Shown here piece after piece: positions 32 to 55,153 of a stretch of 57,564 bases of DNA (position 1 is its first letter; every line of letters starts with the position of its first letter). The notes under the pieces were generated by a model, which saw only the letters and a list, made by a program, of their open reading frames with translations, was not told where the DNA came from and did not search any database. Origin of the DNA: a virus (taxonomy: Duplodnaviria > Caudoviricetes). The stretch lies in IMG/VR virus record IMGVR_UViG_3300004816_000007, positions 1 to 57,564 of that record; one strand, 5' to 3'. A program made the position numbers and the translations under genes.

Positions 32-883
32 ATGTTATATATAGACAGAAGAAAAGAAATATTATCTTTAATTACTCAAAATGGTTCTGTAAAAGTTAAT
101 GATTTGGCAAAAAAATATGAAGTAGGAGAGGCTACTATACGAAGAGATCTTAAATTTCTATCAGAAAAATATGGCGTAGAGCTAACCTATGGTGGAGCTT
201 TTCTAAATGAAATAGACAATTATAAGCAAATAGCTGAAATGAATATTAATAAAAAAAGAACTAATGCTATTTTAGGAGATAAGTTAAAAACTATATGGGG
301 TAAATCTTATATTTTAGACAGAATTGGAGATATAGAATTTAAAATATCACCAATGTCTTTCTATCAGGTTAATCCTGTTCAAACGGAGAAATTATATAAT
401 AAGGTATTAGAATTTGCAGATTTATCAGGGGATGAAATAATCTGGGATGCATACTGTGGAATTGGAACAATAACGTTATTTCTTGCTAAACAAGCAAAAA
501 AAGTTTATGGGGTTGAAATTGTTCCAGATGCTATAAAAAATGCGAAGGAAAATGCTAAAGTAAACAATATAGAAAATACTGAATTTTTTGTTGGAAAAGC
601 CGAAGACGTAATAACTGAACAATTTAATAATAATAAAATAAAGCCAGATATAATAGTTGTTGATCCTCCAAGAAAAGGGTGTGATAAAAAACTATTAGAT
701 ACAATGATTAAAATGAGTCCGAAAAAAATAATCTACGTTTCCTGTGATCCTGCAACATTAGCAAGGGATGTAAAGGTACTAGTAGAAAATGGGTATTTGC
801 TGGAAGTAGTACAACCAGTTGATATGTTTCCACAGACGGTGCATGTGGAGACGGTGGTATTGATGTCAAGGGTTGAGAAATAG
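32..883 (+). CDS. rlmD: Chimeric ORF: DeoR-type HTH N-terminus fused to the C-terminal catalytic half of 23S rRNA (uracil-5)-methyltransferase RlmD/RumA; last codons supplied by the prophage
   Basis: aa 1-60 DeoR pattern (RRKEIL...SVKVNDLA...[10 protein letters not shown]...TYGGA); from ~aa 72 RlmD motifs [45 protein letters not shown]. Confidence 0.8.
842..869 (+). other. Left attachment junction (att site) in rlmD 3' end
   Basis: CATGTGGAGACGGTGGTATTGATGTCAA; this arm is an imperfect inverted repeat of 53567-53593. Confidence 0.8.
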
Positions 884-1539: not shown

Positions 1540-2691
1540 ATGTATAAAACGATTGATTTGTTTGCAGGTATAGGTGGAATAAGAAGAGGGTACGAGATGA
1601 CAGGGAAATTTGAGAATGTATTATCAGCTGAAATTGATAAATATGCTTGCATTACTTATGAACATATATATGATGAAAACCCTTATAATGATGTTACTTC
1701 AGAAGAGTTTAAAGAAAAGGTTGCAAATATTAAATATGATACTTTACTGGCTGGGTTCCCATGTCAAGCATTCAGTAGAGCTGGTAAACAAGAAGGTTTT
1801 TTGGATAGTACAAGAGGAACCTTATTCTTCGATGTCGCAGAAATAATAAAAAGAACAAGACCAAAGACTTTTATGCTAGAGAACGTAGACAATTTACTAA
1901 GTCATGATAAAGGAAACACTTTTAAGGTAATATTAGAGGTGCTTATTAATGAGTTGGATTACAAAATAGTAGGTGTTGAGAAAAATGCAGATGGTAAACT
2001 AATATATGATAATAAAAACTTCATAAGAAATTCTAGAAATTTCGGAATTCCACAAAATAGACCTAGAGTATATATTATGGGCTTTAATAGAAAGTATTTT
2101 GGAAATCAAGTTGATAATTTACCACAAAAGAATTTACCTCAAAAAAGAGATGGAAGTCCAATTTATAGAGATTTAAATGATTTGTTAGAATTTGGTGCAC
2201 CTCCAGAATTTTATGTTGCACAAGGTTATTTAGATACTTTAAAAAGGCATAGAAATAGACATGAAGGGAAAGGAAATGGATTTGGGTATATGGTAGTAAA
2301 CGAACCTAGTATTAAAAATCCCTATTCAAATGCTATTTTGGCTACAGGAGGTTCAGGAAAAGAACGTAATTTAGTATATGACCCACAAGAGGGAATTGCT
2401 GGAAAAATATTAAAAGGAAAACGAACACCTTTAAATAATGAGAATATCCGCCATATGACACCTACAGAGTGGGGTAAATTGCAAGGTTTTATAGGTTATG
2501 CATTTATTAATAAATTTGGTGAAGATAAGTTTACATTTCCACCCAATGTAAGTAAAACACAACTTTATAAACAATTTGGGAATTCTGTAACTATTCCCGT
2601 AATAGAACAAATGGCATTATATATGAATAATTGTCTTGAATTTTTGGAAACAAAGAAGAATCAAAGGGATATATATGAAAACGCAATTTAA
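1540..2691 (+). CDS. DNA cytosine-5 methyltransferase (M1)
   Basis: Motifs DLFAGIGG, AGFPCQAFS, LENV, PQNRPRVY, YKQFGNSV. Confidence 0.95.
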   Translation: MYKTIDLFAGIGGIRRGYEMTGKFENVLSAEIDKYACITYEHIYDENPYNDVTSEEFKEKVANIKYDTLLAGFPCQAFSRAGKQEGFLDSTRGTLFFDVAEIIKRTRPKTFMLENVDNLLSHDKGNTFKVILEVLINELDYKIVGVEKNADGKLIYDNKNFIRNSRNFGIPQNRPRVYIMGFNRKYFGNQVDNLPQKNLPQKRDGSPIYRDLNDLLEFGAPPEFYVAQGYLDTLKRHRNRHEGKGNGFGYMVVNEPSIKNPYSNAILATGGSGKERNLVYDPQEGIAGKILKGKRTPLNNENIRHMTPTEWGKLQGFIGYAFINKFGEDKFTFPPNVSKTQLYKQFGNSVTIPVIEQMALYMNNCLEFLETKKNQRDIYENAI

Positions 2692-3514
2692 ATTTATTGA
2701 TTTATTTGCGGGAATAGGCGGCTTCCATCTTGGTTTAACAACGTGTGGTGGAGAATGTGTTATGGCGTGTGAAATAGATGCTGTAGCAAAAGAAACATAC
2801 TATAAAAATTATGGAATTATGCCATTTGGAGATATTTGTAATCTGTCTTCTGCGAGCCTTCCTGATTATGATCTATTATGTGCAGGATTCCCCTGTCAAC
2901 CATTCAGCAATATTGGAAATAAGGAAGGATTAGACGATCCTAGAGGAGCATTAATTTTTGAAGTTATTAGGATAATAACTGAAAGTAAGCCAAAATCGTT
3001 TTTGTTGGAGAATGTTAAAGGTTTACTTACTCATGATAAAGGTAAGACTTTCAGTAAAATTTACAATTTACTTAATGCCTGTGGTTATGATATATCTTAC
3101 AAAGTTCTAGAAGCAAAGGACTTTGGTATACCACAGATAAGAAAAAGACTTTTCATAGTAGGGATAAGAAAAGATTTAAATATCTGCTTTGAATTTCCTA
3201 TTCCTACAGGGTGTGAAAAAAAATTATCTGATATATTAAGGGGAAAAACAGAGAGAGAATTTGCTTATACTATTCGAATAGGTGGTAGACATTCAGGTAT
3301 AGATAACAAGTTTAATTGGGATTGTTATAAAGTTGATAATGAGCTTAGATATTTAACAATAGAAGAATGTTTACAACTCCAAGGTTTCCCAAGAAATTTT
3401 TATTTAGCAGGTAATCAAAGTTTAAAGTATAAGCAAGTTGGGAATGCAGTGCCCACCGTTGTAGTAGAGGCAATTGGAAAACAATTATGTAAATATAATA
3501 TATATAAATATTAA
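2675..3514 (+). CDS. DNA cytosine-5 methyltransferase (M2)
   Basis: DLFAGIGG, AGFPCQPFS, LENVKG, PQIRKRLF, LQGFP, YKQVGNAV; start reassigned to ATG 2675. Confidence 0.95.
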   Translation: MKTQFKFIDLFAGIGGFHLGLTTCGGECVMACEIDAVAKETYYKNYGIMPFGDICNLSSASLPDYDLLCAGFPCQPFSNIGNKEGLDDPRGALIFEVIRIITESKPKSFLLENVKGLLTHDKGKTFSKIYNLLNACGYDISYKVLEAKDFGIPQIRKRLFIVGIRKDLNICFEFPIPTGCEKKLSDILRGKTEREFAYTIRIGGRHSGIDNKFNWDCYKVDNELRYLTIEECLQLQGFPRNFYLAGNQSLKYKQVGNAVPTVVVEAIGKQLCKYNIYKY

Positions 3515-5649: not shown

Positions 5650-7482
5650 TCAATCATGGTACACGTCATGTAAAAATCCATAACGGCTTTCATTATATTT
5701 ACTTTTATATTTGTCTTGTGTAAATTCAATTACTTTAGCACCTGCCGCTTCATAATCTAAGTCTGGTAGGTCTTTTGTATTTTCTATAACTATTGTTTGT
5801 CCTTCAGATTGATTGTCAATAAAGTATTGGAATAAGGCAGTTCTCATACTCGTAGGTGCATTATCTTTAACACCTTGATCCAAACCAAGTAAAGGGGTAT
5901 CTACTACAAAGATTCCTGGTTTATAGACAGCACTTTCTTGCAAATACCGTCTAAAGGTTAACCCTAACACAGTATTGATAAATGCCCAATAGCCCTTACC
6001 GTGACTATCTTCTTTAGTGAAACCATTAATTTCTAAATCAAAAGTCCCCATGTTGAAATGAGCAGTATTTAAATTCTCATATTTGCAGTCAGTTAGAATT
6101 GAAAATGCTATTTTGTCTATACGAGAATTAAAATCTACTGGGTAATGTTCTTTCGGCTTAAATTTATCTTTATCTAAATCTGCGTTTTTCTCCTGCTTTT
6201 GCAGTTCTGAAATCCAATCCTGTGAAACATTATGTAGAATAGTGGATTCTTGCTGTAATTGTGTATAAGTGTGATATTGTTGTATTCCTTCTCTTAATTT
6301 ATCTGCCTGCGGAGTAAGTTCTGTTTCAATCCATTTTTCAATATCAGCTCTTCGGGTTTCAAGGTAATTAATCTTTTCCTGAACTTCGTTTAAAGTTGAA
6401 ACAATATCATTTTCACTTTCGTTCAACCCTTGCAATTGTTTGATTATACGATTTAATTCAGCTCTTGATGCTTCAATATAAGATTTTCTTTGTGTCGGAC
6501 GGATACTTGCATTACAGAATGGACATTTTTTATTCTTGTCTATAGACTGTAAATGTACTTCTCCATCTACGATAAAGGTAAGTCTTTTTATATCAGCTGT
6601 ATATTGTGTTTTCAACGATTGAAAGTGTGAATGAGTTACTTTAGTTTCTGCCTCTTGTTCTTTAAAAGTTAGTAAAGTGCTGAGTAGATCTTTGCTTTCT
6701 TCTGTGGCAGCTGCGATAGCTTCTTCGGTTTGGGAGAGGTTATCAATTAATTTTTGCATCTCTTCTTCGATATCTAAATCGCCATAAACAGATAGCGCTT
6801 TTTTTAATTCTTCTCTTTTTTTAGACATTTGAGAAATTCTACCATTAACAAATTGTCGAACCGCATCCTTTTTAGCTTTGCTAATTTCATCCTTATCTTG
6901 TTCTTCTATATTTGGATAATCATTGCCAGTGAGAAGATATAATAGGGATGCAAAAAAATAAGGGTATTGCGTAGGTGATGTAGGTAAAAGGACAGACTTT
7001 GGATTTTCAATATCCTGTTCTTTTAACCAAAAGAGTCTTATAAGAGTATTCCATTTTAGACGTTGCCTAGCAAAATCTTGGTTTTTTATTATCATTGGCA
7101 GAGTATCAATACCTATTAGCTTGAGCCATAGTTCATTTAAGACTGGTTTCTTATTTCCGTTGCTTTTATATTCAATGTCATAGTCACCATCATCAATTGA
7201 AGCAATTTCAGTAACCACGTTTACTATATTTTTTCCAAGCGTTCGGGAAAGATGAATAGAGCCTTTTGGAGTCATAATGTCTAGACTAACACTATCATAT
7301 CCTGTTTGTTTTTTCTCAAAAGGTTTTTTGATTACCCCCATAGCAAATTGTATGCATTTTAATACACAGGTCTTTCCAGAATCAGAAACACCACAGATGA
7401 GATTTAACCCCTTATTAAATGTTACTGAAGCAGGTGATTTCTCCGAGCCAGTTGCTGTAACTTTAGTTATATAAAATGCCAT
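5650..7482 (-). CDS. SMC/Rad50-like ABC ATPase of an ABC three-component (Lamassu-like) system
   Basis: Walker A GVSDSGKT, long coiled coils with central CPFC hook, Walker B FVVDTP. Confidence 0.85.
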   Translation of the reverse strand: MAFYITKVTATGSEKSPASVTFNKGLNLICGVSDSGKTCVLKCIQFAMGVIKKPFEKKQTGYDSVSLDIMTPKGSIHLSRTLGKNIVNVVTEIASIDDGDYDIEYKSNGNKKPVLNELWLKLIGIDTLPMIIKNQDFARQRLKWNTLIRLFWLKEQDIENPKSVLLPTSPTQYPYFFASLLYLLTGNDYPNIEEQDKDEISKAKKDAVRQFVNGRISQMSKKREELKKALSVYGDLDIEEEMQKLIDNLSQTEEAIAAATEESKDLLSTLLTFKEQEAETKVTHSHFQSLKTQYTADIKRLTFIVDGEVHLQSIDKNKKCPFCNASIRPTQRKSYIEASRAELNRIIKQLQGLNESENDIVSTLNEVQEKINYLETRRADIEKWIETELTPQADKLREGIQQYHTYTQLQQESTILHNVSQDWISELQKQEKNADLDKDKFKPKEHYPVDFNSRIDKIAFSILTDCKYENLNTAHFNMGTFDLEINGFTKEDSHGKGYWAFINTVLGLTFRRYLQESAVYKPGIFVVDTPLLGLDQGVKDNAPTSMRTALFQYFIDNQSEGQTIVIENTKDLPDLDYEAAGAKVIEFTQDKYKSKYNESRYGFLHDVYHD

Positions 7483-7488
7483 TTGGGA

Positions 7489-7941
7489 TTACTCCTTTCT
7501 TATTGATTTAGAGGCTTTTCGGCTAATCAAGTTAAGAAGCTCTTTTTCGTTTTTTGAGTCCATATATACGATGGCTTTCTGAGCCTGTAATCTGTATTCA
7601 ATCGCATAATCTGAGGTCAGTGAACCACTTAATGCTTGTCCACGTTCTGAAATAGAGTATTGGAAGCCGTCCTTTGAATATGAAACTTTTATCATGTTTT
7701 CAAGCACAAGTTGTTTTATTGCATCTTGTGCCAAAGCTCTCCTTGTAGAAAATTCGGAAAAGCTAAACTCATTATCACCATGAAGATTACTATTAGAAAG
7801 ACCAAACTCTTTTGAATAATTGGAAATGAAATCTGCTGTAGCTAGTTTATCTAATGTGAATCTCTTATTTTCTGATATAGATAAGACAAGTAACAATCTC
7901 ATGGATATTTCAAATATTGTATTAAAAACTGTGTTATTCAT
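7489..7941 (-). CDS. ABC three-component system middle component
   Basis: FNT.FE...R.L..L / DF....F...NLHG...F...EF..RR pattern; sits between CTD gene and ABC ATPase; start uncertain (7941-7968). Confidence 0.7.
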   Translation of the reverse strand: MNNTVFNTIFEISMRLLLVLSISENKRFTLDKLATADFISNYSKEFGLSNSNLHGDNEFSFSEFSTRRALAQDAIKQLVLENMIKVSYSKDGFQYSISERGQALSGSLTSDYAIEYRLQAQKAIVYMDSKNEKELLNLISRKASKSIRKE

Positions 7942-8926
7942 CTTCATCCACCCAACGAATGCAACCATCGTTTACCAATAGATGACATGTTCCTTTCTTT
8001 TCTTTTGGACCTACAAGGTTTTGAAGATTCTCTAAAACAGATGTGGTAGAGCAATCCACTACTTTTTTCATTACGGCTAACAGTCTCTTATATCCATCAT
8101 CATAGTCATCCCAGAGTGTATCTTTAATATAATCATGTGTTTCAGATTTCCACTTTTTCGCATGTGCCTCTCCTTTTTCAAAGGATTCCCGAATAAAACG
8201 GTCAATACGTATGGCACTATAATAATTGATCCGTTGATCAGAAAAGTTTCTTCTATATTTCATAGGCAAAGAGTTTAAATCAGCTTTTGTCAATTTACCA
8301 GATTCTATAGCCTCTGCATAAGCGGCAAGAAGTTCACAGACATATTTTTCTTCTTCTGGAGCAATATCTTGCGGAGGTTCAATCTCTTTTGGAATAGATA
8401 TTTCAACACTTCCGATATGTAATTTACCATCAGATTCATCATAATAAATAGTTTGTGGTGGTAAAGAATTTACTTTGGCAGGGAGGGTTGAATTAGTGAT
8501 ACTAGATGATTCCCTACCTTCATAAATATCATCTAAAATTTGAAGGAATAAATCAGCACAGGCATAACCTAAATCTTCGTCAGAATTAAAATCTGGAACC
8601 ATTGTTCGCAATTCGTTTTCAATAGCCATTTGATTGTGCTCGTTAAGCTCATTTATATACTTTGCGAATTTATCTGTATTTTTGTGGCTGATAACTATAT
8701 GTACTTTCTTTTGATTTAAAGGGTTAGTACCTTTAAATAAACGATCTAGGGAATCTGGTGCAAGTGTTTCAAAAGGATTATATTTTCCATCTTCAGATAG
8801 TTTTATTTCTTCTATTGATTGAGGGTTTCTCATAATATTGTCTACAAGTAACAGAAAAAATTCATGTGGTTTAAACGTTGTATCACTATGTTTAAATAAT
8901 ATATTCGCAAATTCACTAAAGAGCAT
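7934..8926 (-). CDS. ABC three-component system CTD-containing protein with helical, possibly DNA-binding, N-terminus
   Basis: C-terminal EE.YV.ELL.AY..., F.DQR..YYSA, DGY.RL..V, KKG.CH.LVND..I.WV; first gene of the three-gene operon. Confidence 0.7.
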   Translation of the reverse strand: MLFSEFANILFKHSDTTFKPHEFFLLLVDNIMRNPQSIEEIKLSEDGKYNPFETLAPDSLDRLFKGTNPLNQKKVHIVISHKNTDKFAKYINELNEHNQMAIENELRTMVPDFNSDEDLGYACADLFLQILDDIYEGRESSSITNSTLPAKVNSLPPQTIYYDESDGKLHIGSVEISIPKEIEPPQDIAPEEEKYVCELLAAYAEAIESGKLTKADLNSLPMKYRRNFSDQRINYYSAIRIDRFIRESFEKGEAHAKKWKSETHDYIKDTLWDDYDDGYKRLLAVMKKVVDCSTTSVLENLQNLVGPKEKKGTCHLLVNDGCIRWVDEDE

Positions 8927-9214: not shown

Positions 9215-9358
9215 ATGGTGTAACATAATACATCTCAAACATCTAAGAGAATTGCATCAAAAGCTAATAAACATCTCAGTAATGGATGTTACAGCAAAAA
9301 TTTCTAATTGGTTGCTAACGGTATTTTAAGTCAATCAAGATCAAGCGGAAACAAATAG
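9215..9358 (+). pseudogene. Degraded small basic phage protein gene
   Basis: SD-like AGGTGG then ATG GTG TAA, followed by HNTSQTSKRIASKANKHL..G.YSK and frameshifted LVANGILSQSRS*, resembling small QTS..VAS.AS..L...S..A..LSQ proteins. Confidence 0.4.
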
Positions 9359-9466
9359 TTTTCAATTTAAATTGATAGGCAGAGACAGATTTGAAAAATC
9401 AGCCTTGCCTATCCACAAAAAGCAGTAATAAAAAGAGCGGTTAACGCTTAACAAAATAAATCTCAA

Positions 9467-9651
9467 TGTCCGAGATGCGCATTAGGACGGCGGGATGCAT
9501 AAGAGTTCAGAACACAGTGATAAAGACTGTGTTTGGAATGAAGATGCACCCACCGTGGTTTCCTGCGCCCAATTTTGGACAAGTGGAGTCTGTGGTCATC
9601 TTCGCCACAGGCTCTTTTTGTATTCCGCCGTCAATGCCAGGACGGAAAGGA
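9467..9651 (+). ncRNA. Structured cis-regulatory leader RNA (attenuator-like) upstream of the sigma-like gene
   Basis: GC-rich island with nested stems 9467-9581, terminator hairpin 9586-9619 and alternative pairing 9479-9505/9612-9637. Confidence 0.6.
9586..9624 (+). terminator. Intrinsic terminator within the leader
   Basis: GAGTCTGTGG/CCACAGGCTC stem followed by TTTTTGTATT. Confidence 0.65.
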
Positions 9652-9658
9652 ATACTTA

Positions 9659-10207
9659 ATGAAGATTCGAGTTTTATATGAAGACAACATCAAAAACGGT
9701 CACAAGTTCTACACCACAATTGAAATTCCAGATGATGACTACAGCGTCATGCTGGATATCGATTATGAGCAGCGTCTTGCGGAGGCAAAGCCTGAAAAGA
9801 AAGCAGGAGTAAAGCGCTGTGAAACGGTGCAGGAAATGTTCGATATGATGAACAAAAAGGAATACAACCACTGGCGTAGGTATCATAGACATCTAGGCAA
9901 TCCAAAGACTTTTTATCGCAAGGATGATGAATCTGAGGATGAAACTGATGTAATGGATACCATTGCAGACGATACACAAGAAATTGAACGTAATCACCAA
10001 TATGAATATGAGGATGTGTGTCAAAAGGTGCGTTCTGCTCTTGGTAAAAAACAGGAATGGGCAGACATCTTTATTGCAGTAAGAATCGATGGGACTCCCA
10101 TAAGAGAATATGCCAAGAGATTAGGTGTAAATGAAAACAACATTACAAAAAAACTAAAACGCGCAGAGAAAAAATTAAAAGAAATTTTCGAAAAACGTCA
10201 GATTTGA
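9659..10207 (+). CDS. Phage sigma70 region-4-like transcription factor
   Basis: C-terminal HTH DGTPIREYAKRLGVNENNITKKLKRAEKKLK; SD GAAAGGA before ATG 9659. Confidence 0.75.
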   Translation: MKIRVLYEDNIKNGHKFYTTIEIPDDDYSVMLDIDYEQRLAEAKPEKKAGVKRCETVQEMFDMMNKKEYNHWRRYHRHLGNPKTFYRKDDESEDETDVMDTIADDTQEIERNHQYEYEDVCQKVRSALGKKQEWADIFIAVRIDGTPIREYAKRLGVNENNITKKLKRAEKKLKEIFEKRQI

Positions 10208-15791: not shown

Positions 15792-16012
15792 TTGAACCGT
15801 ATGAACAACTTGCAAATGCTATTATATTGCAAGCTGTTAAAGATTATAGGGATGCATTAAAAAAAATTAAAAATTGTCCTCGTTATGAACCTGCAAAAGG
15901 TACCATAGCTGAAGTGGAGAGATTTTTCCACTCTGATTGTTATAGAGAACTTTCTTCTATTGATGGGGATTTTTTGATAACGAAACTAAGAATGGAGGTG
16001 TTTGGGGAATGA
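15788..16012 (+). CDS. Conserved phage hypothetical protein
   Basis: PYEQLANAIILQAVKDYR...EVERFF.S; coupled to neighbours. Confidence 0.75.
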   Translation: MIEPYEQLANAIILQAVKDYRDALKKIKNCPRYEPAKGTIAEVERFFHSDCYRELSSIDGDFLITKLRMEVFGE

Positions 16013-16434
16013 AAGCTAAAGAATATTTACATCAGGCTTACAGACTTGATCAAAGGATAAATTCAGACATTGAAGAAATAGAACGTTTAAGAGCGATGGC
16101 AACAAGTGTTTCTTCTCCAAACTGGGATGAGAAGGTTAGCCATTCCCCTAATACTAATGCTCCATTTGTGAGATGCCTTGAGCGGATAGTGGATTTAGAA
16201 AATAAAATCAATGCTGAGGTTGATCGCCTTGTGAATCTTAAAGAACAAGTCCGTGAAGTAATAGAAAAAGTGTCAAACACTGATGAGCAGATGGTTCTTC
16301 GTTATCGTTATATTCATAACCTCACTTGGGAACAGATTGGTGATGAACTAAATGCTGATAAGAGTACAGTCAGAAGATGGCATGGGAATGCATTAAACCA
16401 TGTAGTGTTACCAGAAAAACCAATAACAATTTAA
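16009..16434 (+). CDS. DUF1492/ArpU-like late transcriptional regulator
   Basis: MKAKEYL.QAY..., VLRYRYI...TWEQI...L....TVRRWH..AL. Confidence 0.8.
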   Translation: MKAKEYLHQAYRLDQRINSDIEEIERLRAMATSVSSPNWDEKVSHSPNTNAPFVRCLERIVDLENKINAEVDRLVNLKEQVREVIEKVSNTDEQMVLRYRYIHNLTWEQIGDELNADKSTVRRWHGNALNHVVLPEKPITI

Positions 16435-45334: not shown

Positions 45335-46909
45335 GTGAAGACTGTGAAGAAAGTAACAAAAATTGAACCAGCATCTGTTTCTTCCATTGTTCAGAAAAAA
45401 TTACGAGTAGCAGCTTATTGCCGGGTATCAACAACAAGTGAAGAACAGCTTGAGAGCCTAAATGCTCAAAAGGAACATTATGAAAAATATATAAAGGCTC
45501 ATTCAGAATGGGAGTTTGTTGGGTTATATTATGATGAGGGTATTACAGGTACCAAGAAAGAAAAGCGTAAAGGCTTACAGGCAATGCTTACTGCTTGTGA
45601 ATTAAAACAGATTGATTTTATTATTACTAAATCAATCAGCAGGTTTGCAAGGAATACACTGGATTGTTTGGAAATGGTTCGAAAGCTGATAGGTCTTGGG
45701 ATATTCTTATATTTCGAGAAGGAAAACCTAAATACGCAATCGATGGAGAGTGAATTAATACTTTCTATTTTAAGCAGTATGGCACAGGATGAATCTACGT
45801 CCATCTCACAAAATAGCAAGTGGAGTGTGCAATCACGTTTTAAAAAAGGTACATTTAAAATTTCTTACCCTCCATATGGCTATGCTAATATTGATGGAAA
45901 GATGGAAGTTATTCCAGAAAAAGCAGAAATAGTAAGGGGGATTTTTAGGCGAGCTTTAGCTGGGAAAGGCTGCTATACCATTGCCAGAGAATTAAATGAA
46001 AGTAATGTACCAACAAAAAAAGGTGGAAAATGGACTGGAACATCGGTTAGAGGAATATTATCCAATGAAAAATATACTGGAGATGCCCTTTTTCAAAAGA
46101 CATATACAGATAGTCAATTTAATCGTCATATAAATTCCGGACAACAAGAACAGTATCTTGTAACCAATCATCATGAGGCTATTATAAGCCACAAGGATTT
46201 TGATAGGGTTCAGGCTGTTATTAGACAACGTGGTAGCGAGAAAAGCGTCAAAAAGGGCAGTTCAAAATATTTAAACAGATATGTTTTGTCTGGGAAAATT
46301 ATCTGTAGAAAGTGCGGGGGTCACTTTAAAAGAAGAACGCATTATACAGCTAAGGGGTCCTACATTGCTTGGACTTGTCAAACTCATATTGAACATAAAG
46401 ATAAATGTACAATGAAATATATCAGAGAGGATGAAATTCATAAAGCTTTTGTGCTTATGATGAATAAGCTGGTATTTGGATATAAGGTAGTGCTGAAACC
46501 TTTGCAGGTGGCGTTAAAAACAATGAACAGTGAAGAAAGAATTACAGCACTTGCTGATTTAGATGAACGCATAGTAAAAAATACAGACCGTAAGCGTGTT
46601 ATAACAGAACTTGTGGGAAAAGGATTTTTAGATGCGACCTTTTTTACTAAAGAGTTGTCAGACATAGCGGCAGAGGCAGAAATGCTGGGACAAGAGAAAA
46701 AAAGGCTTGAAAATTCAGCCACAGGAAATCAAAAACAGCGTTTAGAATTGGATACCCTTATTCATTATATTGTTAAAAAGCCAGAGATTAGAGAATTTGA
46801 AGATACCCTCTTTGAACGGTTTGTAGAGGACATCGTTGTGTATTCTAGGAATGAAATTGGATTTTGCATGAAATGCGGTATTACGCTGAGAGAAAGGATG
46901 GTGAACTAA
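45335..46909 (+). CDS. Large serine recombinase 1
   Basis: [32 protein letters not shown] Zn ribbon, coiled coil. Confidence 0.93.
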   Translation: MKTVKKVTKIEPASVSSIVQKKLRVAAYCRVSTTSEEQLESLNAQKEHYEKYIKAHSEWEFVGLYYDEGITGTKKEKRKGLQAMLTACELKQIDFIITKSISRFARNTLDCLEMVRKLIGLGIFLYFEKENLNTQSMESELILSILSSMAQDESTSISQNSKWSVQSRFKKGTFKISYPPYGYANIDGKMEVIPEKAEIVRGIFRRALAGKGCYTIARELNESNVPTKKGGKWTGTSVRGILSNEKYTGDALFQKTYTDSQFNRHINSGQQEQYLVTNHHEAIISHKDFDRVQAVIRQRGSEKSVKKGSSKYLNRYVLSGKIICRKCGGHFKRRTHYTAKGSYIAWTCQTHIEHKDKCTMKYIREDEIHKAFVLMMNKLVFGYKVVLKPLQVALKTMNSEERITALADLDERIVKNTDRKRVITELVGKGFLDATFFTKELSDIAAEAEMLGQEKKRLENSATGNQKQRLELDTLIHYIVKKPEIREFEDTLFERFVEDIVVYSRNEIGFCMKCGITLRERMVN

Positions 46910-47345: not shown

Positions 47346-48914
47346 ATGGCAGTAAGAAACATAATGGTTATTCCTGCTAAAGCAAGAGTTGGAAACACCG
47401 CATCAGAAGTACAGATACTCAAATTGAGAGTAGCTGCTTACTGCCGTGTTTCTACGGAAAGTGATGAGCAGGCTACTAGTTACGAGGCACAGATAGAGCA
47501 TTATACAGAACTGATTAATAAGAATCCAGAATGGAAACTTGCAGGGATTTACGCCGATGATGGAATAAGTGGTACTAATACTAAAAAGCGTGAAGAGTTT
47601 AATCGTATGATTGATGAGTGTATGGCAGGAAATATTGATATGATAGTGACTAAATCCATCAGTCGATTTGCACGAAATACTCTTGATTGCTTGAGATATA
47701 TCCGTCAACTTAAAGATAAGAATATTCCTGTATATTTTGAAAAAGAGTCTATAAACACAATGGATGCTAAGGGAGAGGTATTACTTACCATTATGGCATC
47801 CCTTGCCCAACAGGAGAGTCAGTCATTGAGTCAGAACGTAAAGCTTGGGTTGCAATATCGATATCAACAAGGCATTGTCCAAGTTAACCACAATAGATTC
47901 CTTGGATACACTAAAGATGAGGAAGGCCATTTAATTATAGAGCCGAAAGGCGCTGAAGTTGTAAAAAGAATTTATCGTGAGTACTTAGAAGGGGCAAGCT
48001 TGATTGAAATAGCAAGGGGGTTAATGGCAGATAATATTTTGACATCTGCAGGGAAAGAAAAATGGCGATCCGAAACTATCAAAAAGATATTACAAAATGA
48101 AAAATATATCGGAGATGCCCTTTTGCAAAAAACCTATACAGTGGACTTTCTTACTAAAAAACGAGTAAAAAATGATGGTATTGTTCCTCAGTATTATGTG
48201 GAAAACAACCATGAACCTATCATACCACGAGATTTATATCTGCAGGTTCAAGAAGAAATGGAACGTAGAAAAAATATCCACAGCGGAAAAAGCGGAAAAA
48301 AGAGGGTTTACAGCAGCAAATATGCTCTTTCCACCATAGTAATTTGTGGACGCTGTGGGGATATATTTCGAAGAGTCCATTGGAATAACCATGGCTGTAA
48401 ATCTATTGTTTGGCGATGTGCGAGCAGACTTGACAAAACAGCAGCAGATTGTTCAGCACGAACTATACGAGAAGAAGATTTGAAAAGTGCAGTGGTGCAG
48501 GCAGTCAATAAAGTGTTTGAATCAAAAACACAATTTATGGATATTCTGAATCGAAATATTTCAGTGGTCATGAATCAAGTTGATAGCAGTGAAATAGAAC
48601 TGATAAATCAAAAATTGGAACAGTTGCAAAAGGAACTGCTTAAGCAAGCAAATAACAACCAAGACTACTCTATTCTTGCTAATGAGATTTACAGACTTAG
48701 AGATGAGAAGGAAACAGCAATGGCTAAAAATGCTGGATTCTCAAGTCAAAAACAAAGAATGGCTGAAATGACAAAATTCCTTAAAGAGCAGGAAAGTATT
48801 TCTAAAGAATATGATGAGCATATAGTGCGTAAATTGATAGAAAGGATTACGGTCTATGATGAAAGACTTACAGTTGAGTTCAAATCAGGGATGGAGCTTG
48901 ATGTGGAGATGTAG
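47346..48914 (+). CDS. Large serine recombinase 2
   Basis: [35 protein letters not shown]. Confidence 0.93.
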
Positions 48915-49082: not shown

Positions 49083-49610
49083 ATGAATAGAAATATTAAT
49101 ATTTCCATAGATGAAGATGTATATGAAAAGTTTTGTCTTGCGGTGAATCTAACAAAAGATAAGGAAAATGATGCGATAGAATCTTCCATGAGATGGTATA
49201 TTGCCAAGACGTTTGAAAAGGCATCTCAAGATTATAATCCGAAAGTAGCAACAAAGAAAATTGCAAATGAAAGTAATGATTATTATGGAAAGGCTATTCA
49301 GCGTATACCTGTTTGGGCATTGAAACCTACTCAGTATAATCATAAAATTATCAGAGCATATTTTGAGGCTGTTAATATTGCAGGACAAGCCACTATTGCA
49401 ATGATGGAGCAATTGTGCAGTGATAAAGAACATCCAGAATTATATGTTCCAACTTTCAAAAATAATTATTCCCAGATGAAAATTGATGGTCCTAAAAGTC
49501 ATGGCAAAGTGTTTGAGGATGATGGGAATAACGTATGGATTTGGAGTGAAGTTGAAGAAATACTCATGAAATATAAATCAAGTTTTTGTAGTGAGGAGGA
49601 ATTAAGGTGA
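49083..49610 (+). CDS. Hypothetical protein with ribbon-helix-helix-like N-terminus
   Basis: NINISIDEDVYEKF...IE..MR.YI strand-helix-helix pattern; SD GGAGGT. Confidence 0.55.
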   Translation: MNRNINISIDEDVYEKFCLAVNLTKDKENDAIESSMRWYIAKTFEKASQDYNPKVATKKIANESNDYYGKAIQRIPVWALKPTQYNHKIIRAYFEAVNIAGQATIAMMEQLCSDKEHPELYVPTFKNNYSQMKIDGPKSHGKVFEDDGNNVWIWSEVEEILMKYKSSFCSEEELR

Positions 49611-51298
49611 GCGAGTTAATTGATGACAGCATAAGTATCTATGAGGCTTTGCAGAATATTAAAAATGGAAAATATGTTATGCCTGCATTCCAAAGGCAGT
49701 ATGTCTGGAATATGGAGCAGATAGAAAAACTATGGGATTCAATTCTATTGGATTATCCAATAGCAACATTCTTATTTTGGCATGTGGATGATGACAACGT
49801 AACTTGGGATACATATTTCTGCAATTTCCTATCTGAAGTTACTTTTGACAGTAGAAAACAAGCAGACAGCGTGAATTATGAATTAAGTAATATTGATGTA
49901 AAGATTACAAATACAGCAGTACTTGATGGACAGCAGAGATTAACTTCACTGTTTCTTTCTTTATTAGGTCAAGCTTTTATTCGACAAAAGCACGCAAGAA
50001 GGAAAAATGGTGGTGGCATTGTTACAAAATTGTTGATTGAACTTAATAAGAATAAACTGACTGTTGATGAAGAAGAGTACAATAGCAAGAAGTATGACAT
50101 TAAGTTCAGTGAAAAGGTTGGGAAACTAAGTCCGACACAATTTGAAATTAAATGTATCTTAGATCCTAAATTTCAAGATGAAACAACCAGGTATAAAGCT
50201 ATTGAAGATGCCATTGCTAATGTTCCGGCAGACAGTAAAGAGTATGCAAGAGGTATTTTAAATAAGCTGTACATTAAAATATTTGTTGATAAGTTGATTC
50301 GGTTTACGGAAATACATGATATGAAACAGGATGATGCTTTGGAAATGTTCGTAAGATTTAATAGCGGTGGAAAAGCTCTTAAAAAATCTGAAATAACAAT
50401 GTCTATTCTTGAGGCATACTGGCCAAGTGCAAAAACTGAATTTGGAAGACTTCTCGTGGATTCTTATGCCGGATTTGGCTCGGATTTTATTATCCGTTCT
50501 GCTCTTATGCTTTATGGTGATGTTGTAAAATCCAATATTAGCAAACAAATAGCTGAGGAACTTAAGAACAATTGGAGTGAATTTAAAAGGGCATTAAAAA
50601 ATTTGGAAGCCGTGCTAAAAGGAATGAAGATTGAAGTTAGGCGTTTTTCAAGTAGCTGGAACGTGCTATTGCCTATACTCTACTTTATTTATTATAACCC
50701 GGATTATGAAAATAACCTTGATGGAATCCGTGCCTATTTAATTAGGGCAATTCTGTTTACATATTTTCAATCTGGTACAACTGGGAAACTACAGCAGATG
50801 AAGAGTAGAATCAATGAAAATGATTACGAAATTACTGTTGATATGCTTAATCAGATGAATGATCTCAGAGTCACTGATGGTAAAATTGAGGATATTCTTA
50901 ATACTGAAAAAGGTAGTAGAGTTGCTGGGGAGGCCTTATATTATCTCAGTTTAGACTGGATAAATAAAAATTTCAAGTATGAGCAAGACCATCTACATCC
51001 CTTCGATAGGTTTGATGGTAGTAAGCCGATATCCGTTTCTATGGAAGAATGGCGAAGATGGAGAGGCAACCGTAATAGACTGGCGAATTTGCACCTACTG
51101 GAAGGCAGAAGTAATGGCAGCAAGAATGATATGAGACTTGTTGATTATTACAATGATATGAATGATGAACAAAAAGCAGAGTTCTGTAAGCAGTCTTTCA
51201 TTCCACAAGGTATTTCACTTGAACTTGAGAATTTTGGTGAGTTCTATGAAAAGAGAAAAGCAATTCTGGCAGAGAAGCTTAGTGGACTGTTAGGCTAA
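49607..51298 (+). CDS. DUF262 + HNH protein (GmrSD-like modification-dependent restriction family)
   Basis: P.FQRQYVW, VLDGQQRLTSL, F.RFN.GG..L; C-terminal EQDHLHP...LANL.LL...N..KN. Confidence 0.85.
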   Translation: MSELIDDSISIYEALQNIKNGKYVMPAFQRQYVWNMEQIEKLWDSILLDYPIATFLFWHVDDDNVTWDTYFCNFLSEVTFDSRKQADSVNYELSNIDVKITNTAVLDGQQRLTSLFLSLLGQAFIRQKHARRKNGGGIVTKLLIELNKNKLTVDEEEYNSKKYDIKFSEKVGKLSPTQFEIKCILDPKFQDETTRYKAIEDAIANVPADSKEYARGILNKLYIKIFVDKLIRFTEIHDMKQDDALEMFVRFNSGGKALKKSEITMSILEAYWPSAKTEFGRLLVDSYAGFGSDFIIRSALMLYGDVVKSNISKQIAEELKNNWSEFKRALKNLEAVLKGMKIEVRRFSSSWNVLLPILYFIYYNPDYENNLDGIRAYLIRAILFTYFQSGTTGKLQQMKSRINENDYEITVDMLNQMNDLRVTDGKIEDILNTEKGSRVAGEALYYLSLDWINKNFKYEQDHLHPFDRFDGSKPISVSMEEWRRWRGNRNRLANLHLLEGRSNGSKNDMRLVDYYNDMNDEQKAEFCKQSFIPQGISLELENFGEFYEKRKAILAEKLSGLLG

Positions 51299-53635: not shown

Positions 53636-55153
53636 TTAAGATATTGATTTTAATAACTTACGGTTATAAACTTTAGAAGAAGAGAAAGTATAAAATACTT
53701 TCAACTCTCCGTTTTTAGAAATTTCAATACGATTAATTAATAAGTTAATAAGTTCTCTATCTATTGTTTCTAGTTCTAAAATACTTTGTAATTGAGATTT
53801 GATACTGCTAATATCAAGTCTCTCTTTTTTTGCTTCAATGGATAGTAAATCTAGTTCTTTTTGGTTTTTCTCGATTTGCTTATTTGTATCTTCTACATAA
53901 AATTTGTATTCATCTCTAGTAATATTTGAGTCTAGCATTTCATCGAGATAGAGTTTTTTCTTTCTTTTAAGGTTATCAATCTTATTAGTCAAAGAAGAAA
54001 TTTTCTTCTCGTTCTTTTTTTGCTCTTTTTGAAGTTTTTTATCAATATCAATGTTTATATTGCTTTCTTTTAGAAAGGCTTTAACATCTCTTTTTATAAT
54101 ACTGATTAAGTGTTGTTCTCTAATTATGTCATTAGAGCAAGCTTCTTTTCCACGTCTTAATCGGTTTCTACATAAGTAGCCTTTACAGTTTCCACGCCAC
54201 CAATAGGGACTTCCACACTCTGAACAGAATATAAAGCCTGTGAATAAGTGTCTGTTATCAGTATACCTAGTAGTTTTTCCTTTTCCACCGTGTGTCTTAA
54301 GAGCTAATTTTTCTTGAACTAGGTTAAAAGTAGTTTCGTCAATAATTGCTTCGTGTGTATCACGAACCCAAATCATTTCATCTTTAGAAACCATTTCTCT
54401 ATTCTTACTTGTTGTGCTTACAGACGTTTCACGGTTTTGAACAAGATGTCCTAAATAGTGATAGTTCATAAGAATTTTTTTTACAGTAGAACTTTGCCAA
54501 TACCAACCCGCATTACTGCGACCTACAACTTGTCCTGGGGTAGGGTATTTTTCTTTGTCAAGATGTCTTGCTATTGCTTCTTGACCTTTTCCTTCAAGAT
54601 ACATTTTAAAAATCAGCTTAACAACATCTTCTGTATAGTCATTTCTTTTGACAAGTTTCTTATTTTCTACCGTATAGCCATATGGAGGAATAGAACCTAA
54701 GTATTCACCTCTAGCTTGTTTCATCTTGAATACAGCTTTAATTCTATCGCTAGTGTTTTTACTTTCTGTCTCATAAATCCACGCATACAAGCCGAAAATC
54801 TTGTTCTTTTCTCTGTCAAAAGTATCAATCTTACCGTCTAAACTTAAAATTCTTACTTTCTTTTCAACTGACATTTGTTCAAGCCAAGTAAGGATATGAA
54901 TATTACGTCCTAAACGACTTAACTCTTTGACTATTATAATGTCAAAATCTCCTTTCTCAATATCATTGACCATTTTGTTAAACGCAGGTCTTTTTTTACG
55001 TCCTGTGCCTGAAATTCCTTCATCAACATAGAAACGACATAACTCATAGTCATTCTCTTTAATGTAATTAAGGAATAAAGCTTCTTGGTTCTTGATACTG
55101 TCTTTTTGTTCTTCTCTGTTTGTGCTTACTCTAAAATAACCTACTGCTTTCAT
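53636..55153 (-). CDS. Large serine recombinase (integrase of second element)
   Basis: GYFRVST, DEGISG, KELSRLGRN, PPYGY, THEAII, CSECG, coiled coil. Confidence 0.93.
   Translation of the reverse strand: MKAVGYFRVSTNREEQKDSIKNQEALFLNYIKENDYELCRFYVDEGISGTGRKKRPAFNKMVNDIEKGDFDIIIVKELSRLGRNIHILTWLEQMSVEKKVRILSLDGKIDTFDREKNKIFGLYAWIYETESKNTSDRIKAVFKMKQARGEYLGSIPPYGYTVENKKLVKRNDYTEDVVKLIFKMYLEGKGQEAIARHLDKEKYPTPGQVVGRSNAGWYWQSSTVKKILMNYHYLGHLVQNRETSVSTTSKNREMVSKDEMIWVRDTHEAIIDETTFNLVQEKLALKTHGGKGKTTRYTDNRHLFTGFIFCSECGSPYWWRGNCKGYLCRNRLRRGKEACSNDIIREQHLISIIKRDVKAFLKESNINIDIDKKLQKEQKKNEKKISSLTNKIDNLKRKKKLYLDEMLDSNITRDEYKFYVEDTNKQIEKNQKELDLLSIEAKKERLDISSIKSQLQSILELETIDRELINLLINRIEISKNGELKVFYTFSSSKVYNRKLLKSIS

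Follow-up and report, generated by a model that had tools for sequence, protein, structure and literature searches.

What decides when the early genes are switched on in a widespread group of Bacillota phages? The question is raised by a 57,564-nt (57.6-kb) IMG/VR virus record of a tailed phage (IMGVR_UViG_3300004816_000007; hereafter the window, meaning this whole stretch), where a gene encoding a sigma-like protein of 182 amino acids (9659–10207) opens a rightward operon and is preceded by a highly structured leader. A preliminary description, made from the sequence of the window, placed a two-state RNA switch at 9467–9661. Comparison with homologous leaders leads us to conclude, with a probability of roughly three in four, that the leader is a cis-acting RNA gating the first early gene at two levels, as a transcription attenuator and as a translational gate, through two mutually exclusive folds. 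It probably helps to decide when the phage early genes switch on. All leader coordinates refer to the plus strand.

The unconstrained minimum free energy (MFE) fold of 9440–9665 has −89.9 kcal/mol, against a mean of −58.0 (standard deviation 4.5) for 200 dinucleotide shuffles, none of which folds as well (z = −7.13). It is identical to state A of the preliminary description, all of whose named stems are found where they had been placed. In this fold, here called OFF, the 5' strands of P1 (9467–9476) and P2 (9477–9481) pair with 3' strands at 9564–9568 (P2) and 9572–9581 (P1), a region (9564–9581) that includes a conserved U-run; the 5' strands are defined by the MFE fold and covariation helices 1–3, and the 3' strands by the MFE fold, a 34-leader alignment and covariation. 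The rod continues with P3, formed by segment X (9487–9500) and segment X' (9544–9556), and with the P3b/P4 hairpin (9505–9539), which is present in both folds and has a covarying stem and a variable loop. Downstream of the rod, the MFE fold and a pattern scan define an intrinsic terminator (9585–9620) with a 12-bp stem, the loop CAUCUUC (9597–9603) and a U-tract (9616–9619). Between 8800 and 10400, 9585–9615 with its T-run is the sole terminator-like site (1 found, 0.6 expected). Finally, segment X'' covers the Shine–Dalgarno (SD) region (9641–9655, with AAGGA at 9647–9651), GTATTCC (9620–9626) pairing with GGAATAC (9649–9655) and CCGTC (9628–9632) with GACGG (9641–9645). Prefix folds and the upstream sequences of 22 loci also reveal a small 5'-proximal hairpin, GAGCG-GUUAA-CGCUU (9435–9449), which is present in most homologs with variable sequence.

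Searches with the downstream protein returned 52 + 57 + 4 viral loci and 54 genome loci across Bacillota (loci carry numbers of the form L001 below). Loci whose leader was identical to one kept, loci with too little upstream DNA and the near-duplicates L135 and L154 were dropped, and about 110 homologous leaders from Bacillota phages and prophages were gathered. Thirty-four diverse leaders served to build a covariance model, which matched in full length in 100 of 100 sources (the window and 99 loci), with 101 matches, as L093 has two; no second copy of the leader is found in the window record. The model-aligned set comprises 99 distinct leaders (alignment A3), and an unfitted alignment of the 34 leaders was made with MAFFT. 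Each set of helices was scored by the percentage of alignment cells paired, the number of pairs changed on both sides, the number of such cells relative to shuffles, and slid controls.

In the 99 model-aligned leaders, 89.7% of the cells of the OFF fold are paired (slid controls, 35–50%) and 46 of 63 pairs are changed on both sides. The changes occupy 255 cells, against 70.2 in shuffles, and none of 500 shuffles reaches 255. The unfitted alignment gives 81.3% paired cells, with slid controls of 36–46%. Of the individual helices, X:X' (helix 4) is 91.2% paired; P3b/P4 (helix 6) 92.6%, with 13 of 13 pairs changed on both sides; the terminator (helix 8) 93.2%, with 7 of 11; and the X'':SD helices 9 and 10 94.6% and 84.0%, with 6 of 7 and 5 of 5. 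The terminator is degenerate in L117 and L120, and none is predicted in the fold of L117. Many helix positions alternate G–U with G–C or A–U on the plus strand only (for example, GU 51/GC 47), which points to a plus-strand RNA. The score of the covariance model on the window, 215 bits on the plus and 16 bits on the minus strand, likewise points to RNA.

The second fold, ON, depends on the strand formed by X (9486–9500) and the adjoining AAGAG (9501–9505), which has three alternative partners: segment L, X' and X''. In ON its partner is the strand 9612–9632, made up of CUCUU, the U-tract and X'' (9620–9632), the last of which is the anti-SD strand in OFF. The core of X:X'' is formed by 13 contiguous pairs (G9486–C9498 with G9620–C9632; 11 Watson–Crick and two G–U). 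In the window its duplex energy is −26.5 kcal/mol, compared with −19.2 kcal/mol for X:X' and −17.7 kcal/mol for the SD sequestor. Across the homologs X:X'' is 87.5% paired (slid controls, 30–56%; 81.1% on the MAFFT alignment), with 7 of 13 pairs changed on both sides in 39 cells, against 16.9 in shuffles. Averaged over lineages, X binds its own X'' with −22.8 kcal/mol and foreign ones with −15.8 kcal/mol; X:X' has −14.3 kcal/mol. The extension AAGAG:CUCUU is 92.8% paired, with four of five pairs changed on both sides and 14 cells against 1.5; its slid controls +1 to +3 are also high because of the U-run. The alternative helix and its continuation into the terminator base, proposed earlier as state B, are therefore supported by covariation. 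Its further extension, GCATT (9479–9483) with AATGC (9633–9637), is present in the window, but across homologs it is paired no more often (63.5%) than in shuffles (63.9%) and is abandoned here.

State B was also thought to remove the terminator by pairing with the U-tract and the sequence downstream. That RNA is absent when the polymerase decides, and pairing of the U-tract cannot undo a terminator that has already acted; a true antiterminator was therefore sought. The terminator loop CAUCUUC is unusually conserved and complementary to GAAGAUG, which flanks X' on its 5' side, and the helix, absent from the preliminary description, extends into the terminator 5' arm: UGAAGAUG-CACCCACC (9539–9554) pairs with the 5' arm and loop (9585–9604) with −14.8 kcal/mol. 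The conservation of the loop is explained by its role in this antiterminator. The strand carrying the GAAG flank and X' (9539–9556) can accordingly pair either with X in the rod or with the terminator 5' arm and loop. In the antiterminator, 88.3% of the cells are paired (slid controls, 33–57%), and 10 of 15 pairs are changed on both sides in 28 cells, against 7.3 in shuffles. Compensatory variants include AGAAGUACC/GGUACUUCU in L125 and helices of 8–11 paired nucleotides in L100 and L168.

Together these helices make ON a three-way junction of the outer helix [X+AAGAG]:[CUCUU..X''], the P4 hairpin and the antiterminator, with the SD free. On the unfitted alignment the whole ON fold is 78.8% paired (slid controls, 39–51%), with 20 of 33 pairs changed on both sides. 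Covariation thus supports two complete, mutually exclusive folds, both recurring in homologs with compensatory changes, and the central idea of the preliminary description, a leader gating the sigma-like gene through two such folds, holds; the helices, their mutual exclusivity and their covariation are direct observations. Six strands take part in the exclusive pairings, each of which covaries: L, X, X', the terminator 5' arm and loop, the terminator 3' arm with X'', and the SD. As in an attenuator, the terminator is located directly upstream of the gene, an antiterminator forms on its 5' arm and X:X' acts as anti-antiterminator. As in SD-sequestering switches, an anti-SD strand lies on the SD, and an upstream strand is able to remove it.

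Folds of the growing transcript reveal a further helix, H0, in which X pairs with the upstream segment L (AUCUC-AA-UGUCC, 9460–9471) before X' exists. AUCUC (9460–9464) pairs with GGGAU (9492–9496), and UGUCC (9467–9471), which also starts the 5' strand of P1, with GGACG (9485–9489). The apparent linker before P1 is nearly invariant because it is paired with X in H0. H0 appears in the prefix folds of 21 of 22 representatives, and in alignment A4 92.3% of its cells are paired (slid controls, 38–51%), 5 of its 10 pairs being changed on both sides in 11 cells, where shuffles give 1.8.

The apical loop of H0 displays a palindrome, ATGCGCAT (9475–9482), which also contributes to the 5' strand of P2 and occurs once in the window. 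All 22 distinct variants keep a Watson–Crick palindrome of at least 6 nt at this position, with lengths of 6–10 nt and 11 sequences, among them TGCGCA, ATGGCCAT, TAGCGCTA, TAGCTA, TTGCAA, GGCGCC, GCTGGCCAGC, GGTCGACC and TCTCGAGA. Other leader windows score 0–5 of 22, and the ATGCAT end of X 13 of 22. No palindrome is present in the 3' strand of P2, which also fails to track the change from GCGC to GGCC. Self-complementarity is required by neither the OFF nor the ON fold, and the palindrome is unexplained by them. The sigma-like protein is weakly disfavoured as its specificity partner: proteins 95–97% identical differ in palindrome (L048 and L094 versus L093), and among 195 locus pairs with sigma-like proteins at least 93% identical, two have different palindrome cores.

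As in kissing loops, a self-complementary sequence is exposed in an apical loop, that of H0 in the prefix folds. We entertain, as a doubtful idea, that two nascent leaders kiss through this palindrome, that the contact holds X off X' so that the antiterminator forms, and that the leader is a protein-free, RNA-only decision device. If this were so, expression of the early activator would increase sharply as nascent leaders become locally more concentrated, as a function of genome copy number or promoter firing; co-resident phages would be kept from cross-talk by their different palindromes; and the leader would be a specificity-coded commitment or immunity switch at the RNA level. The palindrome is in any case a concrete, testable lead to the missing signal.

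From the nature of the pairings we infer an order of events, a direction of regulation and a possible trigger. In OFF, X would pair with X' inside the rod P1–P4, and this anti-antiterminator would allow the terminator to form; in any read-through RNA, X'' would close the SD region. In ON, X' would instead pair with the terminator 5' arm and loop, so that the polymerase reads on, and X with AAGAG would capture CUCUU, the U-tract and X'', freeing the ribosome site. The choice is probably made during transcription, when H0 first holds X through L with the palindrome in its loop, and the outcome would depend on whether L has been displaced by X' by the time the terminator is transcribed. If it does, the rod and terminator would follow; if X' is left free, it would pair with the emerging terminator arm and read-through would result. 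As trigger we would rank a factor or RNA–RNA contact on H0 and its palindrome first, a rod-stabilizing protein, as in pyr and rplJL, second, and transcription speed third. A stalled ribosome is unlikely, since no leader peptide is conserved: the open reading frames (ORFs) 9466–9681 and 9495–9659 are not maintained, most homologs have AAG in place of the ATG at 9466, and frame-breaking insertions and deletions occur. That the leader controls lytic commitment, as the preliminary description had it, we infer from gene order only.

Several observations weigh against this interpretation. In the window, ON is 12.6–13.7 kcal/mol less stable than OFF, and forcing X:X'' costs 12.6 kcal/mol (−77.2 versus −89.8 kcal/mol). 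When X' is barred from upstream pairing in 20 representatives, at a cost of 3.0–13.7 kcal/mol (13.7 in the window), X:X'' forms in 13, the antiterminator in 10 and both in eight, leaving seven without X:X''. The antiterminator energies with own and foreign partners are barely apart (−14.6 versus −12.1 kcal/mol, standard deviation 4.0). Most leaders are near-identical, so that common ancestry inflates the cell counts; the comparison with shuffles does not amount to a probability; and alignment A3 is fitted to the OFF fold. RNAalifold, applied to the MAFFT alignment, returns 11 pairs only (the terminator and three pairs of H0) and does not recover the rod, a miss that we attribute to misaligned divergent rows and nevertheless count as a result against. 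No effector of the switch was found. The last point concerns expression data from the 24 sequencing runs listed, all in the form of contigs and each containing only 9–12% of the sampled words; four of the runs were compared with the leader. RNA-library contigs of 229 nt (X3, over 9453–9671) and 220 nt (X4, over 9453–9630), from two studies, cross the terminator, and longer ones from a third study (X12, X13) run through the leader. Contigs cannot measure terminator efficiency, nor can they show RNA ends, strand or level, and no conclusion on termination is therefore drawn from them.

A first alternative is that only the OFF fold matters, the leader being a constitutive damper and stabilizer (a structured 5' untranslated region with a leaky terminator and a closed ribosome site) and the ON helices by-products of the likeness among X-like and anti-X-like segments. 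The MFE fold is OFF in 18 of the 20 representatives. Moreover, X', X'' and L are similar in sequence, and X is similar to the SD region; a degree of cross-pairing is therefore to be expected, and X with foreign X'' partners already reaches −15.8 kcal/mol. However, the terminator loop and the GAAG flank, to which OFF assigns no role, are conserved and show covariation between them; AAGAG covaries with CUCUU; and L, which has no partner in OFF, hardly varies and covaries with X. Only 3–5 kcal/mol separate the two folds in several homologs, and in L049 the lowest-energy fold already holds X:X''. On this evidence we regard a purely constitutive role as unlikely.

A metabolite or ion riboswitch, with the rod or H0 as an aptamer whose ligand shifts the balance of folds, would be in keeping with the architecture, in which a sensor would be followed by a terminator/antiterminator and an SD sequestor. 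Such a sensor would also suit the very high conservation of primary sequence within the main clade and the near-isoenergetic folds of some homologs. Divergent clades, however, retain few invariant unpaired nucleotides, the 34-leader alignment having nine invariant columns only, and the conserved loop segments of the rod and beyond (AAGAG, GAAG and the terminator loop) all find partners in alternative pairings, an argument against a classical ligand pocket. Nor is there a riboswitch among the matches: none of the 4227 models of Rfam 15, including T-box, the PyrR site, ribosomal leaders, riboswitches and the C4 antisense RNA, matches the window at its gathering threshold. A permissive scan of 9300–9750 gives four matches only (E 3.1–7.6; 9–18 bits, where the thresholds are 43–208), and a scan for transfer RNA (tRNA) and transfer-messenger RNA gives none. 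The leader belongs to none of the described RNA families tested, in agreement with the preliminary remark that its family was not recognizable, and we consider a riboswitch quite unlikely.

The same preliminary account also offered an antisense immunity RNA like P4 CI. In that case the terminated RNA of ~160 nt would act on other transcripts, as P4 CI or P1 c4 does. Termination at a strong site would yield a stable, structured RNA carrying X and hence complementarity to the downstream X'', and the short RNA-library contigs from two studies lie mainly over the leader, a weak point since contigs show no ends or levels. Against this, the contigs extend past the terminator, and the leader occurs in a single copy in the window. 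X would be buried in the rod of the terminated RNA, its pairing with X'' would open the ribosome site and not close it, and besides X'' the window holds no complement of at least 13 nt (the best has 12 nt, E 0.6); for these three reasons we judge a P4 CI-like RNA very unlikely. It is hardly credible that the element acts as DNA (an operator, cruciform or recombination site), even though a position-specific palindrome that varies between phages resembles the specificity types of operators and repressors and an inverted repeat surrounds the promoter-like site upstream, since the G–U alternation is confined to the plus strand, the covariance model prefers that strand by 215 to 16 bits, and the element stops exactly at the start codon and contains a canonical terminator and SD sequestor.

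The two-level gate is not tied to one protein. A 16-nt leader motif matched 93 viral stretches, 80 of which were examined: 54 are ahead of a gene of the window type, 12 are full leaders elsewhere and 14 are chance matches without a leader. The 12 (158–209 bits; L183, L188, L195, L196, L211, L221, L223, L227, L232, L233, L238 and L243) end at the start codons of other first genes. Seven of these genes were scanned. Those of L195, L223 and L227 pass the Pfam cutoff for sigma-70 region 4 and that of L232 is just below it; L233 has a weak helix-turn-helix (HTH) match only, and the function of the L183 and L211 genes is unknown, although L183 carries DUF2971. In all, at least five small sigma-region-4 genes other than that of the window type carry the leader in front of them. 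Whatever the first gene is, the leader invariably stops at its start codon, and the leader is therefore a cassette independent of one particular downstream protein. In L093 a second, diverged copy (1720–1916, 84.7 bits) is located ~380 nt upstream of the regular one and is followed by a 23-codon stump (1926–1997) resembling the N-terminus of the sigma-region-4 gene of L195 and L238; this copy looks like a recombination scar.

In the window, the gated protein (9659–10207, plus strand) is composed of a conserved N-terminal domain of unknown function and a C-terminal sigma-70 region 4 domain (Pfam Sigma70_r4_2, E 1.5e-6, 28.2 bits, cutoff 25.7; phrog_11138). It scores under the cutoff for NCBIfam sigma70-ECF, and a PDB sequence search with the profile of the family gave no match. 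Its start codon and N-terminus are kept in 10 of 10 aligned homologs. The operon continues with a Rha-family, antirepressor-like regulator directly after the sigma-like gene, a DUF7768 protein, a VapE-type primase-helicase and an SNF2 helicase.

The window also encodes a terminase, portal, major head and tape measure proteins, a DNA polymerase, several methyltransferases and, near the right end, serine recombinases. In a phage collection, the leader was matched in Streptococcus phage Javan630, Erysipelothrix phage phi1605 and Ruminococcus phage NatCom_38182 only, the last of which is filed in GenBank under 'Ca. Heliusvirales'. Leader-bearing prophages are common in Clostridia, Lachnospiraceae, Erysipelotrichaceae, enterococci and streptococci, and the group is widespread in gut and soil. 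The leader-bearing contigs of genome loci L065, L072 and L077 are binned in metagenome-assembled genomes labelled Methanolobus, Dissulfurispiraceae and Thermotogaceae, labels outside Bacillota that may be binning artefacts. The literature searched, supplementary files aside, yielded no account of the leader or of early-gene control in these phages; a term search in one paper on Heliusvirales (PMC11283538) gave no occurrence of riboswitch, non-coding, sigma, lysogen, repressor or VirE.

The leader occupies a 730-bp gap between the rightward operon and a minus-strand ABC-3C defence cassette (5650–8926) directly upstream, which is complete with three genes (AAA_23 ATPase, MC2 and CTD6). Javan630 has the same ATPase cassette at the same place. 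Two C-5 cytosine DNA methylase genes (1540–3514, plus strand) lie left of the cassette. Within the gap, at about 9226–9360 (plus strand), we observe the remnant of a small Lys/Ser-rich ORF broken by two stop codons; its intact 47-residue form is Javan630_0053, and phi1605 has a form of 42 residues. Further on, an inverted repeat, GATAGGCAG (9374–9382) and CTGCCTATC (9406–9414), within 9372–9414 (plus strand), brackets the promoter-like TTGATA-16-AAAAAT and is kept in a subset of loci (the window, L002, L003, L017, L025, L038, L041, L051, L052 and L108). This repeat may be the operator for a protein repressor of the promoter of the leader.

Elsewhere in the window, the ORF 32–883 (plus strand) fuses an HTH_DeoR N-terminus to the C-terminal half of a tRNA/ribosomal RNA uracil-5-methyltransferase (profile positions 169–356 of 357) and has the look of a junction left by recombination within an rlmD-type gene. 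A second small sigma-region-4/DUF1492 protein with weak RinA-like similarity is encoded at 16009–16434 (plus strand), before HNH and terminase genes; it is probably a late activator, and no copy of the leader precedes its gene. At the right end, three large serine recombinase genes (45335–46909, 47346–48914 and 53636–55153, minus strand) accompany a GmrSD-type restriction gene (49607–51298).

As a conserved, portable control cassette, the leader stands at the entry of the early operon, just past a variable defence-gene slot. Its six interlocking strands, with two covariation-supported folds coupling termination to translation, make it a clean model for co-transcriptional strand exchange, and it offers a practical handle to predict or manipulate prophage induction in gut bacteria.

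Four groups of known RNAs are relevant to this arrangement. The dimerization initiation site of HIV-1 is a palindromic kissing loop. As there, the self-complementary loop sequence of the leader is 6–10 nt long and varies between lineages while self-complementarity is kept; unlike there, dimerization is a conjecture, the palindrome nucleotides lie in a helix when the rod of OFF is formed, and the setting is one of gene regulation in bacteria. P4 CI and P1/P7 c4 are phage immunity RNAs. Like these, the leader is a structured RNA of an early operon with complementarity to a downstream site on its own transcript, and the next gene is Rha/antirepressor-like. In contrast to them, the complementarity of X and X'' would activate, because it removes the anti-SD strand; the leader matches no Rfam model at gathering score and has no second target in the phage.

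The erm- and cat-type leaders are examples of translational attenuation. The vmlR leader is reported to combine transcription and translation attenuation (PMC9226507). The leader resembles the erm, cat and vmlR leaders in that a ribosome site hidden in a hairpin would be freed when an upstream strand changes partner. It differs from them in having no conserved leader peptide and in the strand that moves: here strand 1 swaps between 2 and 3, whereas there strand 2 swaps between 1 and 3.

The pyr leader with PyrR is a Firmicute attenuator built from a terminator, an antiterminator and an anti-antiterminator. The Bacillus subtilis rplJL leader with L10(L12)4 is likewise reported to be a Firmicute attenuator (PMC4538822). 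The leader shares with both systems three successive, exclusive helices that would decide intrinsic termination, and a 5'-most helix, here the rod with X:X', that would tie up the antiterminator strand and favour the terminator. In contrast to those leaders, whose Rfam models do not match it, the leader has no known binding protein and is borne by phages, H0 would pre-sequester X, and a second lock on the ribosome site would be operated by the same strand X.

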